Position numbers and translations under genes: made by a program
Assembly: GCA_947652665.1 (NCBI GenBank)
Contig: CANTDZ010000001.1
Coordinates: 67-64,066 of the forward strand
Source of the DNA: an uncultured Clostridia bacterium
GTDB lineage: Bacteria > Bacillota > Clostridia > Oscillospirales > Acutalibacteraceae
Reading direction: 5' to 3'
Length of the DNA stretch: 64,000 bases
Shown: positions 58,363 to 64,000 of the stretch, piece after piece
How the letters are laid out: each line of letters begins with the position of its first letter
How positions within the stretch are numbered: position 1 is the first letter of the stretch
Notes under the pieces: generated by a model
Told to the model about the DNA's origin: nothing
The model's database searches: none
What the model saw: the letters and a program-made list of their open reading frames with translations, nothing else

Positions 58363-58411
58363 TGCTATAATACAATCAACGTAAAACAAATCGCCAAGAG
58401 GTGTAGTGCAT

Positions 58412-59884
58412 ATGCTTAAAAATTGGATACCCCCGGAGAAGCCGGAAAAAGAGGAGATCAAGTCCCGTTTGAAGGCGGCGCAGGAGAAGCTCGCCCTACA
58501 GCAGATGCAGCTAAAAGACCGCAAATTGCCCGTCCTGGTGCTCATTGAGGGCTGGGGCGCGGCCGGGAAGGGCAGCTCCATCGGGCGGGTCATTCGCAAT
58601 ATCGACCCCCGCTTTTTCAAGGTGTTCTCCATGGGCTCCCCCACGGAAGAGGAGCAGCGCCTGCCGTTTTTGTACCGCTATTTTGAGAAGATTCCCGAGG
58701 CCGGCAAGTTTACATTCTTAGATTCCGGCTGGATGGACGAGATCATGAAGGACCGCCTCCAGGGCGGCATGGGCGACGAAACCTATGCCCAGCGGGTGGA
58801 CAGCGTCAAGCGCTTTGAGCGCCAGCTGACGGATAACGGCTACCTGGTGCTGAAATTCTTCTTTAACATAAGCAAAAAAGAGCAGGCCAAGCGCATTGAC
58901 GGCCTGCTGGAGGATAAAGATACCGCCTGGCGCGTTGGCCGCCGGGACGTGTGGCAGAACCGCCACTACGAAGACTGCCAGGAAGCGTTTGACCGCTATC
59001 TGACCGACACCAACACCCCCAGCGCGCCCTGGTACTTAGTAGACGCGAAGAACAAGAAGTTCGCCGAGCTGCAGGTCATGGAGACGCTGTGCACGGGCAT
59101 TGAGACCGCCCTGCACAACGACCGTTTGGCCGTGCCGCTGCTGCAAAACACATTCCCGCTGGTAAAAATGCCCAAGCTCAAGGACGTGTCTTTGGCTGAC
59201 AAAACCATCAGTGATGAAGAATATAAGTCCGAACTGGACCGCCTGCAGGGCAAGCTGCGTATGCTGCACAACCGGCTTTATCGCAAGCGCGTACCTGTGG
59301 TCATGGTCTATGAGGGCTGGGACGCCGCAGGCAAGGGCGGCAACATCAAGCGCGTCACTGGGGCTTTGGACCCCCGCGGCTTTGAGGTGCACCCTATTGC
59401 CAGCCCCGAGCCCAAAGAGAAGGCCCGGCACTATCTGTGGCGCTTCTGGACACGCCTGCCTAAAACCGGACACATCGCCATCTTTGACCGCAGCTGGTAT
59501 GGCCGCGTCATGGTGGAACGCCTGGAGGGATTCTGCACCGAAAACGACTGGCAGCGCGCCTTCTACGAAATGAACGAGTTCGAGCAGGAACTGCACAACT
59601 GGGGCGCCGTCATCCTGAAATTCTGGGTGCATATTGATTCCGACACCCAGCTGGCCCGCTTTACCGACCGTCAGAACACCCCCGCCAAGCAGTGGAAGAT
59701 CACCGACGAGGACTGGCGTAACCGCGAAAAGTGGGACGAGTATGAAATGGCCATCGACGAGATGCTGCAAAAGACCAGCACCACCTTTGCCCCCTGGCAC
59801 ATCCTGGAGTCGGTGGACAAAAAGTATGCGCGCATCAAGGCGCTGCAGATTGTGGTCGACACCTTGGAGAAGGCCCTCGACTAA
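58412..59884 (+). CDS. Polyphosphate:AMP phosphotransferase (two-domain PPK2, class II-like)
   Basis: Two PPK2 domains: EGWGAAGKG and EGWDAAGKGG, FDRSWYGRVMVER, W.ITDEDWRNR. Confidence 0.93.
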   Translation: MLKNWIPPEKPEKEEIKSRLKAAQEKLALQQMQLKDRKLPVLVLIEGWGAAGKGSSIGRVIRNIDPRFFKVFSMGSPTEEEQRLPFLYRYFEKIPEAGKFTFLDSGWMDEIMKDRLQGGMGDETYAQRVDSVKRFERQLTDNGYLVLKFFFNISKKEQAKRIDGLLEDKDTAWRVGRRDVWQNRHYEDCQEAFDRYLTDTNTPSAPWYLVDAKNKKFAELQVMETLCTGIETALHNDRLAVPLLQNTFPLVKMPKLKDVSLADKTISDEEYKSELDRLQGKLRMLHNRLYRKRVPVVMVYEGWDAAGKGGNIKRVTGALDPRGFEVHPIASPEPKEKARHYLWRFWTRLPKTGHIAIFDRSWYGRVMVERLEGFCTENDWQRAFYEMNEFEQELHNWGAVILKFWVHIDSDTQLARFTDRQNTPAKQWKITDEDWRNREKWDEYEMAIDEMLQKTSTTFAPWHILESVDKKYARIKALQIVVDTLEKALD

Positions 59885-59928
59885 CTAAATTTGATAATAA
59901 GTCTTCATTTTCTTCTTTCCTTATTGCT

Positions 59929-59958
59929 AAGGGGGAGGCCGTAAAAAGCCTCCCCCTT
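59929..59958. terminator. Bidirectional terminator between ppk2 and pilT
   Basis: AAGGGGGAGGC-8 nt-GCCTCCCCCTT. Confidence 0.75.
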
Positions 59959-59973
59959 GGTATTTTTATTTGA

Positions 59974-61029
59974 TTAACCCAGGCGCTTGCTCATTACGTC
60001 GTAATGGGCACAGTACACCAGAGCCGTCTCCTTGGTGATCTTGCCCTCCCGGTACAGCTTCAGGAGGCTGCCGTCCATGGTGCACATCCCGTCGGCCGCC
60101 CCAGACTGGAGCACGGAGTCCAGCTGATGCAGCTTATCCTCGCGGATCATGTTCTGGATGGCATTGGTGCTCTTCATGATCTCAAACACCGGCAGCAGAC
60201 GCCCGTCCACGCCGGGAACCAGCTGCTGGCACACCACGCCCTTTAAGAGCTGCGACAGCTGGATTTTCACCTGTTGCTGCTGGTTGGCCGGGAACACGTC
60301 GATAATGCGTGTGATGGTGTTGGCCACGCTGCTGGTGTGCAGGGTGCTGAACAGCAAAAGCCCCGTTTCCGTGGCCGTAATCGCCGCCGACACCGTGTCA
60401 TAGTCGCGCATCTCGCCCAGCAGGATCACGTCCGGGCTCTCCCGCAGGGCCGACCGCAGCGCCGCCGGGTAGCCCGGGGTGTCGATGGAGATTTCCCTTT
60501 GCGTCACGATGGACTTCTCGTGGCGGTAAATGTACTCAATGGGGTCCTCCATGGTGATGATGTGGCAGTCGCGGTTCTGGTTGATGCGCTGGATCATGCA
60601 GGCGATGGTCGTGGACTTGCCCGTGCCCACCGCGCCGGTCACCAACACCAGGCCCTTCTGGTTGTCGGCCAGCTCTAACACCTCGTCGGGAATGCCCAAG
60701 TCCTTGGGGTCGGGCAGGCCGAACTGGATGAGCCGTATCACCGCCGCCAGCGAGCCCCGCTGTTTGAACACGTTCACGCGGAAGCGCCCCAGCCCGGCAA
60801 TAGCGAAGGAAAAATCGTCGTCTTCGCCGTGGGCGATGTGGGTCTGCTCACGCTTGGCCAGGGCGTAAATGCCCTCAATGAGCCGCTGGGTGTCGGCCGG
60901 CTTTAGGAAGCCTTCCCCCCAACGGTTCTGGTGCCCCTTGCATTTCAGCGTGATGGGCAGGCCGGCCACGAGAAAGATGTCCGACGCCCCCTCCCCATAC
61001 GCTTTTTCTAAAATTTCCTGTATCTCCAT
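59974..61029 (-). CDS. pilT: PilT/PilU-family type IV filament ATPase
   Basis: ASDIF, GRFRVN, Walker A GAVGTGKST, TMEDPIEY, QREI, ALRESPDVILLGEMRD, TLHT, AIQNMIRE (AIRNLIRE-like). Confidence 0.92.
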   Translation of the reverse strand: MEIQEILEKAYGEGASDIFLVAGLPITLKCKGHQNRWGEGFLKPADTQRLIEGIYALAKREQTHIAHGEDDDFSFAIAGLGRFRVNVFKQRGSLAAVIRLIQFGLPDPKDLGIPDEVLELADNQKGLVLVTGAVGTGKSTTIACMIQRINQNRDCHIITMEDPIEYIYRHEKSIVTQREISIDTPGYPAALRSALRESPDVILLGEMRDYDTVSAAITATETGLLLFSTLHTSSVANTITRIIDVFPANQQQQVKIQLSQLLKGVVCQQLVPGVDGRLLPVFEIMKSTNAIQNMIREDKLHQLDSVLQSGAADGMCTMDGSLLKLYREGKITKETALVYCAHYDVMSKRLG

Positions 61030-61060
61030 GGTATTTCCTCCGGGTTTTCATAGTGAGGAT

Positions 61061-61089
61061 ATTATACCATTTGGCGTCCGATTTGTAAA
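61061..61089 (-). promoter_or_regulatory. Internal sigmaA-type promoter for pilT
   Basis: TTTACA-17-TATAAT with TGG extended -10. Confidence 0.65.
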
Positions 61090-61092
61090 TGC

Positions 61093-61458
61093 CTACTCGC
61101 CCGACCAGAGCCCGCCGATCTCCTCCGGCGCCTGCCAGTCGCTTGAATACTGCCAGCAGGCAATTTCGCCCGCAGACGTTACACCGATTTTCAGGCTCAA
61201 GCCGTCCTTCTGGGCTGTATACCAGCTTAATCCATCTTCCCCTATCTCCCGGCAGTTCGAGCGCTGCAGAGCACACAGATAGCCCTGCCCTTCCATCTCC
61301 AGCTCATATCGCTTCTGGACAAACGCCGCCTGCTTTTCCGCCATCGCCAAATCGGCCCGGGCTGTAGAAAACGTAAGGATGCCCAAAACCGTCATGCAGA
61401 TGGTGACCACCGTCAGCAAAAGCGCTAGGGGGCCTAGCCGTATGGGTACTTGTTTCAC
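61093..61458 (-). CDS. Pilin-like protein 4 (G|hydrophobic, no Glu5; GspK/PilX-like by analogy)
   Basis: MKQVPIRLG|PLALLLTVVTICMTVLGIL; GTGA coupling. Confidence 0.6.
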   Translation of the reverse strand: MKQVPIRLGPLALLLTVVTICMTVLGILTFSTARADLAMAEKQAAFVQKRYELEMEGQGYLCALQRSNCREIGEDGLSWYTAQKDGLSLKIGVTSAGEIACWQYSSDWQAPEEIGGLWSGE

Positions 61459-61817
61459 TCTTCGCCACCTCCCGTAAAAGCTCCCGTGCGCAGGGTGTAG
61501 ACGGGTTCTGCCCCGTCCAGCCAGTACACCTGGATCTCGCTTTCCACAAAATCTTCCGACTCATCCCAACTAAGCTCCACCCGAAATTCCCCGGTGTCGC
61601 CCAGCCTCTCCACGATTTCCTCCAGACCGTCAGCCTCGCCCACTAGCTCGGCGGCGTTCTCCGCCAGCACCACCGCTCGGGTGAGCACCCGCGCCTGGCT
61701 GCTCTGCTCTTTCGAGAGGGCGAACATCCGCGTCAACGTCAAAATGACGCCCACAAACACCACGATGAGCACCAGCATTTCCATATAAAACGCCGTAATA
61801 CTATGCTTGCCTTTCAT
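61455..61817 (-). CDS. Pilin-like protein 3 with a degenerate class III signal peptide
   Basis: MKGKHSIT|AFYMEMLVLIVVF (Glu at +5); ATGA coupling. Confidence 0.62.
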   Translation of the reverse strand: MKGKHSITAFYMEMLVLIVVFVGVILTLTRMFALSKEQSSQARVLTRAVVLAENAAELVGEADGLEEIVERLGDTGEFRVELSWDESEDFVESEIQVYWLDGAEPVYTLRTGAFTGGGEE

Positions 61818-62260
61818 CCCGCACCTCCGCTCCGCAGGCGCAAAAAGGCCTGGCCCTCGTCAGTAGACACCGTAAGAAGGCTCCCCTGCTGCTGAATCTC
61901 AAAGACAGCCGTCTCCCCCAGCACCTGGGCATCCTCGGGGCTCAAGGGCGCGCCGTCCTGAGCGTAATCCTCCACCAGCTTCCCGTCCCACTGGTAAATG
62001 CGCAGGGCGTACCCGCTGTCCCGGTCCCGGACGACCAGCACCGGGCCCTTCTGAACCTCCACCCCGCCCGCGTGGTCGCTGGCCCGCACGCAGGTGGATA
62101 TGTACCCCAGCAGCGCCCGGGCCCGGTTATTCGCCGCCTGGCCCTCCACGGCCTGCCGGTAGGTGGCGGCGCCGAAGGTCACCAACAGGAAAAAGCCGGC
62201 CAAAAAAAGCCCGGCTATGCCCAGGGTAAAAAACGCCTGCGACTGGCTTTTCCGATTCAA
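61814..62260 (-). CDS. DUF4860-like pilin-like protein 2
   Basis: Single N-terminal TM, GAATYR, YI...VRASD, RIYQWDGKLVE; RBS-supported TTG start (GTG at 62284 is an alternative). Confidence 0.68.
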   Translation of the reverse strand: MNRKSQSQAFFTLGIAGLFLAGFFLLVTFGAATYRQAVEGQAANNRARALLGYISTCVRASDHAGGVEVQKGPVLVVRDRDSGYALRIYQWDGKLVEDYAQDGAPLSPEDAQVLGETAVFEIQQQGSLLTVSTDEGQAFLRLRSGGAG

Positions 62261-62280
62261 ATCGCCCAGCTCCTTTCCCG

Positions 62281-62598
62281 TCACGGCTTCGGCACCACGG
62301 TCACTTGGGGGGGCAGGTTCGACGCGAACACGTCATAGACCACGTAAAAATCCTCCCGGTTGACCTGCAGGCCGTAATTTTCCTCCAAATGCTCCAGAGT
62401 CGGCGGGTAGACGCCCTCCACCACGTAGCACTGCACGGCGCTTTGGGCGATGGCATTGCGCACTGCTTGGGCCGCTTCCGCTTCTATGTCCACCTGGGAC
62501 ACCTGCACCGCCCGCCAGCACACCAGCGCAAAAATCGCCGCCGTCAGCAGCCCCAGCGCCACCAGCGGCCAAACCCTCTGTTTTTTGTCCGTATACAT
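62281..62598 (-). CDS. Pilin-like protein 1
   Basis: N-terminal TM plus amphipathic helix, then AVQCYVVEGVYPPTLEHL, resembling the pilin/GspG YP.xL..L loop. Confidence 0.65.
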   Translation of the reverse strand: MYTDKKQRVWPLVALGLLTAAIFALVCWRAVQVSQVDIEAEAAQAVRNAIAQSAVQCYVVEGVYPPTLEHLEENYGLQVNREDFYVVYDVFASNLPPQVTVVPKP

Positions 62599-62608
62599 GG
62601 GCCACCCC

Positions 62609-63649
62609 TCAACCGATGGAACTCATGATGCCCAGCAGCGGCAGCATGACGCTCAAGAGAGACACGCCCACCGTCACCAGCAGCACGCCGCTCAAAAGCG
62701 GGTCGACGATGCCCACCAGCCGGTCGGTGCGCGCGCCGCACTGCTCCTCCAAAAGCTCCGTCAGGCGCCACAGCACCGGCTCCAGACTGCCGCTGCGCTC
62801 GCCCGCCAGCAGCATCCGGCCGTAGACGGGCTCGAAAAGCTGCTCATCGTAGGCGGCCTGGGCGACGCTATGCCCTTCTTCCAGATGCTTCAGGCACTTT
62901 TCCAGCTTCTGCTCCACGGGCTTGCAAGCCACCATTTTCATGCTCTCCATCACGGCGATGTCCTGCACCTCGCCGCTGGCCAAAAACGTCGCCAGCGCCG
63001 CCGTGAAGCGGTACATCCCCATCTCCCGCAGCAGGTTCCCCGACGCCGGGAGCTTCAATAAGATGCCCTCGACCACGGAGCGCTTCTTGCTGTTCCAAAG
63101 CGCCAGGCCTATCAGCAGCGCCGCCGCCAGCAGGACCATCACTCCCAGCGCCGCCCAGCAGAACCCGTAGGCCCACTGTATGTAGCGGTACGCCGAATAG
63201 GCCAGGCTCCCCGTCAGCCGGTCGTAAACCTGGGTGAAGGCGGGCAGCACCATGGTCAGCATCAGCACCAGCACCACGATGATGAGCACCAGCATGGCCG
63301 CCGGGTACGTCACCGCGCTCCTCAGCTTCTCGGACAGGGTCTTCTGCCCCGCATAATATTTTGCCAGCCGGAACAAAACGTCCTCCAGCCGGCCCGAGCT
63401 CTCTCCCGCCGCCACCATGCGCACGGCGTACTCCGGGAACAGGCCCGTCTTCTCCAGCGCCGCCGACAAATTCGAGCCTTCTTCCAGCTCCTTCTGCACC
63501 TGGCCCAGGCCGGTCTCCAAGGGCCCGGGCTTCGAGTTCTCCTGGCGCAGCAAGCCTACGGCCTCCTCGGTCTGGATTCCCGCCTGGAGCATCATCCCCA
63601 TGCTTTCACAAAAAGCGCTGATCCCCAGCGCGTCCAATTTTTTTTGCAT
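62609..63649 (-). CDS. Type II secretion/type IV pilus platform protein (GspF/PilC family), short form of 346 aa
   Basis: Two T2SSF domains (FCESMGMMLQAGI...AGESSGRLE; FTAALATFLASG...AGERSGSLE), AVTYP, LPLLGIM. Confidence 0.92.
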   Translation of the reverse strand: MQKKLDALGISAFCESMGMMLQAGIQTEEAVGLLRQENSKPGPLETGLGQVQKELEEGSNLSAALEKTGLFPEYAVRMVAAGESSGRLEDVLFRLAKYYAGQKTLSEKLRSAVTYPAAMLVLIIVVLVLMLTMVLPAFTQVYDRLTGSLAYSAYRYIQWAYGFCWAALGVMVLLAAALLIGLALWNSKKRSVVEGILLKLPASGNLLREMGMYRFTAALATFLASGEVQDIAVMESMKMVACKPVEQKLEKCLKHLEEGHSVAQAAYDEQLFEPVYGRMLLAGERSGSLEPVLWRLTELLEEQCGARTDRLVGIVDPLLSGVLLVTVGVSLLSVMLPLLGIMSSIG

Positions 63650-63670
63650 CAAACCGCCCCTCCAAGCCTG

Positions 63671-64000
63671 CTAAAAATATTTTGTATCGGTATAATTGGT
63701 CCCGTCCCCGATAAATTCCGCATCACTGCCGTTGGCCGCAAAGGTGGGGTCCAGCCGGTTCCAGCTATTGGATTCCACCTCATACTGCACCGTGACCCAC
63801 CCGCTCTCCTGGGTGTAGAACATATTCCACGCGTGGTACAGCTCGTCGGGCTGCACGTAGCCAAACACCATTTTCGTGGGGATTCCTTGGCTGCGCAGCA
63901 TGGCCGCCGCCAGGCTGGCGTAGTCGAAGCAGATGCCCTTCCCGCTCTGCAGGGTCTTGTCGGGGTCGGGCAGATAGGAGCTCTCCACCGTCTGGGCCAG
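63671..64000 (-). CDS. Transglutaminase-like domain protein, C-terminal part (5' end outside the window)
   Basis: YLPDPDKTL..GKGICFDYA (Cys), LRSQGIPTK, YHAWN (His), LDPT (Asp); frame is open to the window edge. Confidence 0.88.
   Translation of the reverse strand: MAQTVESSYLPDPDKTLQSGKGICFDYASLAAAMLRSQGIPTKMVFGYVQPDELYHAWNMFYTQESGWVTVQYEVESNSWNRLDPTFAANGSDAEFIGDGTNYTDTKYF

Follow-up and report, generated by a model that had tools for sequence, protein, structure and literature searches.

A conserved seven-gene cassette in gut Clostridia that probably encodes a minimal, uncharacterized type IV filament variant with PilT as its only ATPase

RESULTS

A seven-gene cassette resembles a minimal type IV filament system

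We analyzed a 64,000-nucleotide (nt) stretch of DNA from an uncultured Clostridia bacterium (bases 67 to 64,066 of the 71.5-kb contig CANTDZ010000001.1, assembly GCA_947652665.1; hereafter, the window), together with the remaining 7.5 kb of the contig. The analysis supports the conclusion that this region carries a complete copy of a self-contained, minimal, and uncharacterized type IV filament (T4F) variant made up of seven genes. Read along the minus strand, these encode a transglutaminase-like lipoprotein, a GspF/PilC-type platform protein, four small proteins (sp1, sp2, sp3, and sp4), and a PilT-family ATPase (Table 1). A preliminary description of the window had proposed these open reading frames (ORFs) as a compact, noncanonical filament-like system. 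All seven lie at the positions given there, and domain searches agree with their labels.

The tight packing of the genes reported in that description was confirmed. The four genes encoding proteins with a single transmembrane (TM) segment are chained at all three junctions, where the sequence reads GTGA for sp1/sp2, ATGA for sp2/sp3, and GTGA for sp3/sp4. The distance from the platform stop codon to the sp1 ATG is 10 nt, as reported, and the interval between the transglutaminase stop codon and the platform ATG, put at about 20 nt, measured 21 nt and contains a GGAGG-type ribosome site. The 5' end of the operon does lie outside the window, with the transglutaminase-like gene reaching window-equivalent position 64630. 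At the other end, a separate, near-consensus promoter appears to serve pilT. A promoter-like site in the 63-nt gap ahead of the gene matches the consensus at 11 of 12 positions, has an extended −10 element, and is followed by a GGAGG ribosome-binding site. A GC-rich hairpin 3' of pilT likely marks the end of the transcription unit.

The cassette is conserved across four families

We compared gene order in 35 fetched loci covering the cassette, drawn from species genomes of Oscillospiraceae, Lachnospiraceae, Anaerovoracaceae, and Erysipelotrichaceae. The order transglutaminase-platform-sp1-sp2-sp3-sp4-PilT was kept in all 35 (tblastn E values down to 1e-170), and the recurrence of this order in so many independent loci rules out chance. 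Because the flanking genes otherwise differ between loci (RpoC, glycogen synthase, transporters, and others), the seven genes make up a self-contained unit. For the platform, databases contain more than 800 relatives, many of them 60-66% identical between families, and distant variants with platforms that are ~30% identical keep the gene order. In one distant variant (G118, L051 7508-11619), genes for a transglutaminase, a platform, and four small proteins precede a gene for a CheY-like receiver, which stands in place of pilT; no PilT was found within the 20 kb fetched around this variant.

This degree of conservation can be set against the idea that the cassette is a decaying, nonfunctional remnant of a clostridial type IVa pilus (T4aP) cluster from which pilB, pilD, and pilMNO were lost. 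Degenerate pilin signals and the missing core T4aP genes would fit such decay, as would the lengths of sp3 and sp4, which are 20-45 amino acids (aa) shorter than their nearest relatives. However, seven intact genes stand in order across the four families at platform identities from 89% down to ~30%, including the 60-66% seen between families. The catalytic motifs of PilT and the transglutaminase are intact, no frameshifts or internal stop codons are present, and the coupled overlaps are retained. We regard decay as extremely improbable.

When 401 genomes were sampled evenly across the class (216 genera), sp2 homologs were found in 15 genomes from 12 genera. The platform tree (L008-L042) conflicts with taxonomy in that Oscillospiraceae are mixed with Lachnospiraceae, and one Lachnospiraceae locus (L033) adjoins a Mogibacterium locus (Anaerovoracaceae). 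In addition, one genome of the window organism's own genus lacks the cassette. The cassette is patchy and, given the mismatch between tree and taxonomy and this same-genus genome, probably moves horizontally.

The ATPase is PilT-like and the platform scores below the cut-offs of characterized systems

In profile comparisons, the cassette ATPase scored 397 bits against the PilT/PilU model TIGR01420 (cut-off 319) and matched PF00437 at 5.9e-40. It scored 337 bits against the Aquifex PilT structures 2gsz and 2ewv, compared with about 80 bits against PilB/GspE structures, and the PilT-specific AIRNLIRE-type motif is present as AIQNMIRE. Scores against models of other ATPases were 108 bits for PilB (cut-off 676), 126 bits for ComGA (NF041000; cut-off 300), 113 bits for GspE (TIGR02533; cut-off 630), and 37 bits for TadA (TIGR03819; cut-off 373). 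By these comparisons, the cassette ATPase is a true PilT with intact catalytic motifs, not an assembly ATPase. PilT is the textbook retraction motor, and its established activity is to move subunits from a filament into the membrane.

The platform contains two T2SSF domains (PF00482, 4.8e-40) in a single gene, unlike the TadB/TadC pair. It matched the GspF model over positions 57-400, lacking roughly the first 55 GspF residues. Its scores were 189 bits against GspF (TIGR02120; cut-off 424), 122 bits against ComGB (NF041012; cut-off 240), and 140 bits against PilC (cut-off 700), with 103 bits against Myxococcus xanthus PilC (3jc8). Falling below the equivalog cut-offs of ComGB, GspF, PilC, and ComGA, the platform and the ATPase are not placed inside a characterized T4aP or Com family. 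The earlier statement that the gene set fits no T4aP, Com, or Tad model is upheld, with PilB, ComGA, ComGB, and TadA all unmatched at their cut-offs.

Full-text literature searches returned no paper mentioning DUF4860 (the family of sp2) and none joining a transglutaminase with PilT and PilC. No such system is described in a survey of Gram-positive type IV pili (T4P) (PMC3244431) or in a survey of the T4F superfamily (PMC6668835), whose generic model requires a recognizable major pilin. The proposal of a distinct, uncharacterized T4F subtype in gut Clostridia agrees with both the conservation of the cassette and the absence of a paper on it from these searches.

Canonical partners are absent from this genome and from relatives

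No second T2SSE ATPase or platform was found in this assembly by tblastn with the cassette proteins or by a T2SSE family search, which returned the cassette PilT and P-loop-only matches in unrelated large frames. An A24 prepilin peptidase (PF01478) was found neither in this assembly nor in six relatives. No N_methyl prepilin (PF07963) was found in this genome or in four relatives, which comprise two isolates (Neglectibacter sp. X58 and D16-76) and two Oscillospiraceae-type metagenome-assembled genomes (together G001, G002, G009, and G013). PilM (PF11104) gave only sub-threshold matches in this assembly, in unrelated frames of 368 and 660 aa and none in the cassette; PilN and PilO were not searched separately. 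The same four relatives likewise have no second T2SSE ATPase or platform, A24 peptidase, or PilM.

The preliminary description had seen no PilB, PilM, or PilD in the window, and this holds across the whole assembly. It had also noted that a canonical pilB/pilMNO set immediately upstream would speak against a new subtype. No pilB, pilD, or pilMNO occurs in the 7.5 kb of contig beyond the window; sortases, SipW, and fiber proteins are encoded there instead.

A 112-aa truncated prepilin-peptidase-like ORF with both Asp motifs kept is present in D16-76 (G002:C76, L049 2796-3134), where it is overlapped by a 659-aa gene on the opposite strand. It is the sole A24 trace in Oscillospiraceae-type carriers. 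We rejected this weak Peptidase_A24 match as a cassette partner, as it is truncated, lies at an unrelated site, and has no counterpart in the genome studied here.

An A24 peptidase is present in 15 of 21 cassette-bearing genomes, and each of the four A24-positive carriers checked for ATPases has a further T2SSE ATPase. In G012, the second T2SSE ATPase belongs to a ComG-like operon that also encodes N_methyl pilins and is distinct from the cassette. Since some carriers lack these components and G012 has both systems, the cassette appears to be independent of A24 peptidases and of a second ATPase, and not to be a Com substitute.

The small proteins have pilin-like features

Among the four small proteins, sp3 looks most like a prepilin. 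Its N-terminus consists of an MKxKxHIT leader, a small residue (A/G/S), F-Y-x-E, and a hydrophobic helix, with F10 and E13 invariant in 31 sequences; as judged from the alignment, the arrangement is that of a class III signal with a one-position shift. The AlphaFold2 model of sp3 (predicted local distance difference test [pLDDT] of 90.6) has a helix at residues 4-61 (58 residues), a second helix at 65-72, and three strands. Its top Foldseek match is the minor pseudopilin EpsI/GspI of the type II secretion system (T2SS) (2ret; probability 0.96, E = 0.087). A profile search against 1.84 billion representatives placed sp3 in a family of 2,533 clusters at 50% identity; the 150 best matches listed showed no bridge to canonical pilins.

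sp1 combines a conserved MYSDKKK tip with a TM segment whose sequence varies and a highly conserved head of ~60 aa (QCYVVEGVYPPxLxYLEENYGL), with a mean column identity of 55% in the alignment. Its AlphaFold2 model (pLDDT of 84) has a helix at residues 9-61 (53 residues), a helix at 68-74, and two strands. The type IV pilins 4d40, 6xxd, 5vxx, and 1ay2 are among its top Foldseek matches, all with E > 1. A pilin fold was the feature that the preliminary description had proposed to look for in the small proteins, and the sp1 and sp3 models both combine a long N-terminal helix with a small β-sheet at pLDDT 84-91. The pilin likeness of the two models in Foldseek is suggestive but not significant.

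sp2 matches DUF4860 (PF16152) at 1.1e-10. A short basic leader, a small residue, and a conserved hydrophobic helix make up its N-terminus (consensus SPLG-LYTIGIAALFLAGF; SPLG-LYTIG), with no Glu. The N-terminus of sp4 contains a conserved PI(K/R)LGPLALLLTVISICL and an invariant Ala-Asp that closes the helix segment; its consensus, LG-PLALLL, likewise marks a conserved hydrophobic helix with no Glu. Like sp2 and sp3, sp4 begins with a short basic leader. Weak PilX_N matches occurred in 3 of 33 sp4 members. Pfam scans of all sp3 and sp4 alignment members gave faint Pilin_N, Tad, and PilX_N matches only, and profile searches of sp1-sp4 against PDB chains gave no meaningful match.

In this genome, sp3 (120 aa) and sp4 (121 aa) are shorter than their counterparts in L008-L010 (142-144 and 157-166 aa, respectively). 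The shortfall of 20-45 residues is confined to the variable C-terminal heads, and the frames are intact.

These proteins bear most directly on a non-filament alternative, in which PilT and the platform would extract bitopic proteins or remodel a membrane complex and sp1-sp4 would serve as anchors or adaptors of the transglutaminase. Removal of subunits from a filament into the membrane is the established PilT activity; the cassette has no assembly ATPase, peptidase, or canonical pilin motif; conservation does not extend to the TM segment of sp1; and the structural resemblance to pilins has weak statistical support. On the other hand, the N-terminal hydrophobic helices of sp2, sp3, and sp4 are strongly conserved, a pattern that helix-to-helix packing of subunits would be expected to produce. 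The Phe and Glu characteristic of pilins are invariant in sp3, and both T2SSF domains are kept in the platform. We consider a non-filament device unlikely.

The transglutaminase-like lipoprotein is predicted to act outside the membrane

The full transglutaminase-like protein is 319 aa long and includes a low-complexity linker. Transglut_core matched the part in the window at 4e-19 and the full protein at 9.5e-24. Its gene lies directly upstream of the platform gene in every locus with enough flank. The triad Cys234/His266/Asp294 is invariant in all 33 homologs, a lipobox (LWGC) occupies residues 17-20, and most homologs have a lipobox. From the invariant triad and the lipobox, we infer an active enzyme that is predicted to lie on the outer face of the membrane. 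Pseudomurein endoisopeptidases have the same fold, and we know of no case in which enzymes of the transglutaminase class have been linked to pili. We also considered the enzyme as a substitute for the prepilin peptidase and rejected this role, as class III leaders are cleaved on the cytoplasmic face, at odds with the inferred outer-face lipoprotein topology.

The genomic neighborhood contains surface-fiber and signaling genes

Upstream of the cassette lies a nine-gene co-directional block in which sortase-built pili and SipW-dependent fibers are encoded side by side (Table 1). The cassette closes this 16-gene co-directional array, in which gaps do not exceed 94 nt. SipW is directly upstream of the cassette in 12 of the 28 loci with enough flank, representing at least four platform-tree lineages, and the whole sortase/BsaA block is present in 8 of the 20 loci with long flanks. 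This count of SipW linkage is a lower bound, as two loci scored as lacking a nearby SipW (G009, contig C159; G021, contig C11) have a SipW-type gene ~14 kb upstream on the same contig. A SipW-type peptidase above the family cut-off was found in 19 of 22 close-cassette genomes versus 87 of 385 cassette-free Clostridia (P = 1.6e-9, Fisher's test, which ignores phylogeny). SipW itself was rejected as a component of the cassette, being absent nearby in more than half of the cassettes.

One or more signaling genes follow pilT in 12 of 21 loci (including L031, L032, L036, L039, L041, and L042). They encode a BTAD regulator with a GGDEF-like domain, a response-regulator-GGDEF-EAL protein, an Hpt protein, and a GGDEF cyclase; a conserved 160-aa protein with no Pfam match is also encoded among the genes after pilT. 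These downstream genes suggest control of the cassette by cyclic di-GMP (c-di-GMP). In the genome studied here, a convergent PPK2 gene follows pilT in place of signaling genes. The PPK2-like protein has two domains and is internally duplicated (self-match), and its gene occupies the same position in the closest relatives (L008 and L009).

Overall, the neighborhood favors a role in surface fibers over one in DNA uptake. In the latter case, the cassette would encode a divergent Com-like pseudopilus that captures DNA for ComEA/ComEC, with PilT retraction pulling the DNA in. The layout does resemble comGB-GG, with a run of four or five small pilin-like genes placed after a platform, and ComEC occurs in each of the seven cassette-only genomes tested, all of which lack a ComG operon. 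However, ComEC is near-universal, whereas the cassette is patchy (sp2 homologs in 15 of 401 Clostridia), and the coexistence of the cassette with the ComG-like operon and N_methyl pilins of G012 indicates that the two are not redundant. Scores of the ATPase and platform are far under the cut-offs for ComGA and ComGB, Com systems have nothing that corresponds to the obligatory transglutaminase-like enzyme, and the neighbors are fiber, sortase, and c-di-GMP genes, with no DNA-processing genes. A DNA uptake function is therefore quite unlikely.

Table 1. Features of the cassette and its surroundings, in window coordinates (positions beyond 64,000 are window equivalents on the contig)
Feature	Position	Strand	Details
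Nine-gene upstream block	64637-71481 (L003 6704-13548)	-	Co-directional with the cassette; members in the next four rows
Class B sortase, SipW-type signal peptidase, MucBP-like protein		-	First listed members of the block
249-aa protein		-	VKTGD sorting-signal-like C-terminus plus TM segment, read from the sequence
BsaA-family SipW-dependent protein, 183-aa protein, DUF5979 protein		-	183-aa protein has a TasA-type signal
Class C sortase, LPXTG major pilin		-	Pilin of SpaH/EbpB type; C-terminus only
Transglutaminase-like gene	63671-64000	-	First cassette gene; C-terminal 109 aa in window
GspF/PilC platform	62609-63649	-	346 aa; ATG start, ORF extendable to TTG at 63652
sp1	62281-62598	-	105 aa; small single-TM ORF
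sp2	61814-62284	-	156 aa; small single-TM ORF, DUF4860 (PF16152)
sp3	61455-61817	-	120 aa; small single-TM ORF
sp4	61093-61458	-	121 aa; small single-TM ORF
Promoter-like site before pilT	61061-61089	-	TTTACA, 17 nt, TGgTATAAT
PilT-family ATPase	59974-61029	-	351 aa; last cassette gene
GC-rich hairpin plus T-run	59925-59962 (L003 1992-2029)	.	Between convergent pilT and PPK2 genes; 15-bp stem, 9 GC pairs
PPK2-like gene	58406-59884	+	492 aa

DISCUSSION

Our preferred reading is that the cassette encodes a minimal T4F machine, in which a PilT-driven short pseudopilus helps surface fibers and sortase pili to cross the cell wall; we give this reading a probability of roughly 55%. In Clostridium perfringens, export of BsaC, a product of the sipW-bsa operon, requires a canonical set of T4P genes, and export of BsaA polymers requires it in part (10.1101/2024.11.04.621531); the fiber-export reading is preferred on the basis of this dependence. 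In the proposed mechanism, a PilT-type hexamer would dock on the platform and act as a single bifunctional motor for both insertion and extraction of pilin-like subunits, giving a short pseudopilus or endopilus. sp2, sp3, and sp4 may form a priming complex like that of GspH/I/J/K, with sp1 serving as the repeated subunit or as a partner anchored in the membrane. The subunits would remain uncleaved or be cut by a non-A24 enzyme. Outside the membrane, the lipoprotein enzyme could open peptide cross-links in the wall, or it could cross-link or otherwise covalently process the subunits. The cassette would then be a Gram-positive counterpart of the type II secretion piston, moving SipW-dependent BsaA/TasA-like fibers and sortase pili through peptidoglycan, with c-di-GMP control probable in many hosts.

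Several points weigh against this reading. We know of no demonstration that a PilT-clade ATPase assembles a filament alone. Canonical pilins do not polymerize without prepilin peptidase, an enzyme that, to our knowledge, is thought to be universal for the T4F superfamily. sp1 lacks the Gly/Phe/Glu motif and has a variable TM sequence, unlike a major pilin, and the Foldseek E values are nonsignificant for both modeled proteins (0.087 for sp3 and >1 for sp1). A SipW or sortase block is missing from the 10 kb around more than half of the cassettes, and the test for SipW enrichment takes no account of phylogeny. Finally, the draft status of the assembly (213 contigs, 94.6% complete) leaves room for a missed gene in this genome, although an overlooked gene is made less likely by the same absences in four relatives.

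A more far-reaching proposal is that the cassette represents a separate T4F class. In such a class, PilT would be the sole bidirectional or assembly motor, the subunits would be peptidase independent, and a dedicated extracellular transglutaminase-fold enzyme would replace the usual accessories, either opening the wall or fixing subunits covalently. The system would perform a Gram-positive, T2SS-like export of SipW-dependent or sortase-assembled fibers and, in other hosts, of large adhesins. We advance this proposal tentatively and consider it possible but doubtful.

A widespread natural system with PilT as its sole motor would offer a direct test of whether an ATPase of the PilT type is able to build a filament and of whether the motor or its partners determine direction. 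In addition, the cassette combines the lack of a prepilin peptidase with an added enzyme class that is not known to have been linked to pili. The cassette is common among Clostridia and Erysipelotrichia of the gut and rumen, in which surface fibers shape colonization and biofilms. The physical tie to sortase pili and SipW/BsaA fibers provides a concrete cargo hypothesis for how bulky polymers cross the thick wall of Gram-positive cells.

Among known systems, the Com pilus shares with the cassette a compact monoderm operon, a platform of ~340 aa, four or five small pilin-like genes after the platform, a single ATPase, and the lack of PilMNO. In contrast, the cassette ATPase is a PilT that is encoded last rather than first, and the cassette has no N_methyl signals and no ComC. 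Its platform is under the ComGB cut-off, it has an obligatory transglutaminase-like lipoprotein, and it coexists with a ComG-like operon in some genomes.

The T2SS pseudopilus similarly combines a platform with small pseudopilins in what is probably a short, non-exposed filament, and the top, though nonsignificant, structural match of sp3 is GspI/EpsI. A further proposed likeness is a role in driving folded or polymeric cargo across a barrier in the envelope. The cassette differs in having no GspE, GspL/M, GspC, secretin, or prepilin peptidase, and in having a PilT-clade motor and a monoderm host.

Clostridial T4aP occur in the same class, have PilT and PilC homologs, and provide another case of a T4P machine tied to sipW-bsa fibers, a tie that is physical in the cassette. 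In C. perfringens, the secretion of BsaC and BsaA depends on PilA3, PilB2, PilC1, PilD, and PilMNO (10.1101/2024.11.04.621531). The cassette lacks PilB, PilD, PilMNO, and canonical pilins, which that system needs. The bsa operon of C. perfringens is not reported as joined to pilus genes in that work, whereas the cassette adjoins its fiber block.

Tad pili, through CpaF, and MSHA pili, in which PilT promotes extension as well as retraction (PMC9815625), offer precedents for a single two-way ATPase and for PilT aiding extension, respectively. CpaF, however, belongs to the TadA clade, against which the cassette ATPase scores 37 bits, and Tad systems use a prepilin peptidase. MSHA pili have a prepilin peptidase as well as their own extension ATPase, MshE, whereas in the cassette PilT would be the motor for both directions.

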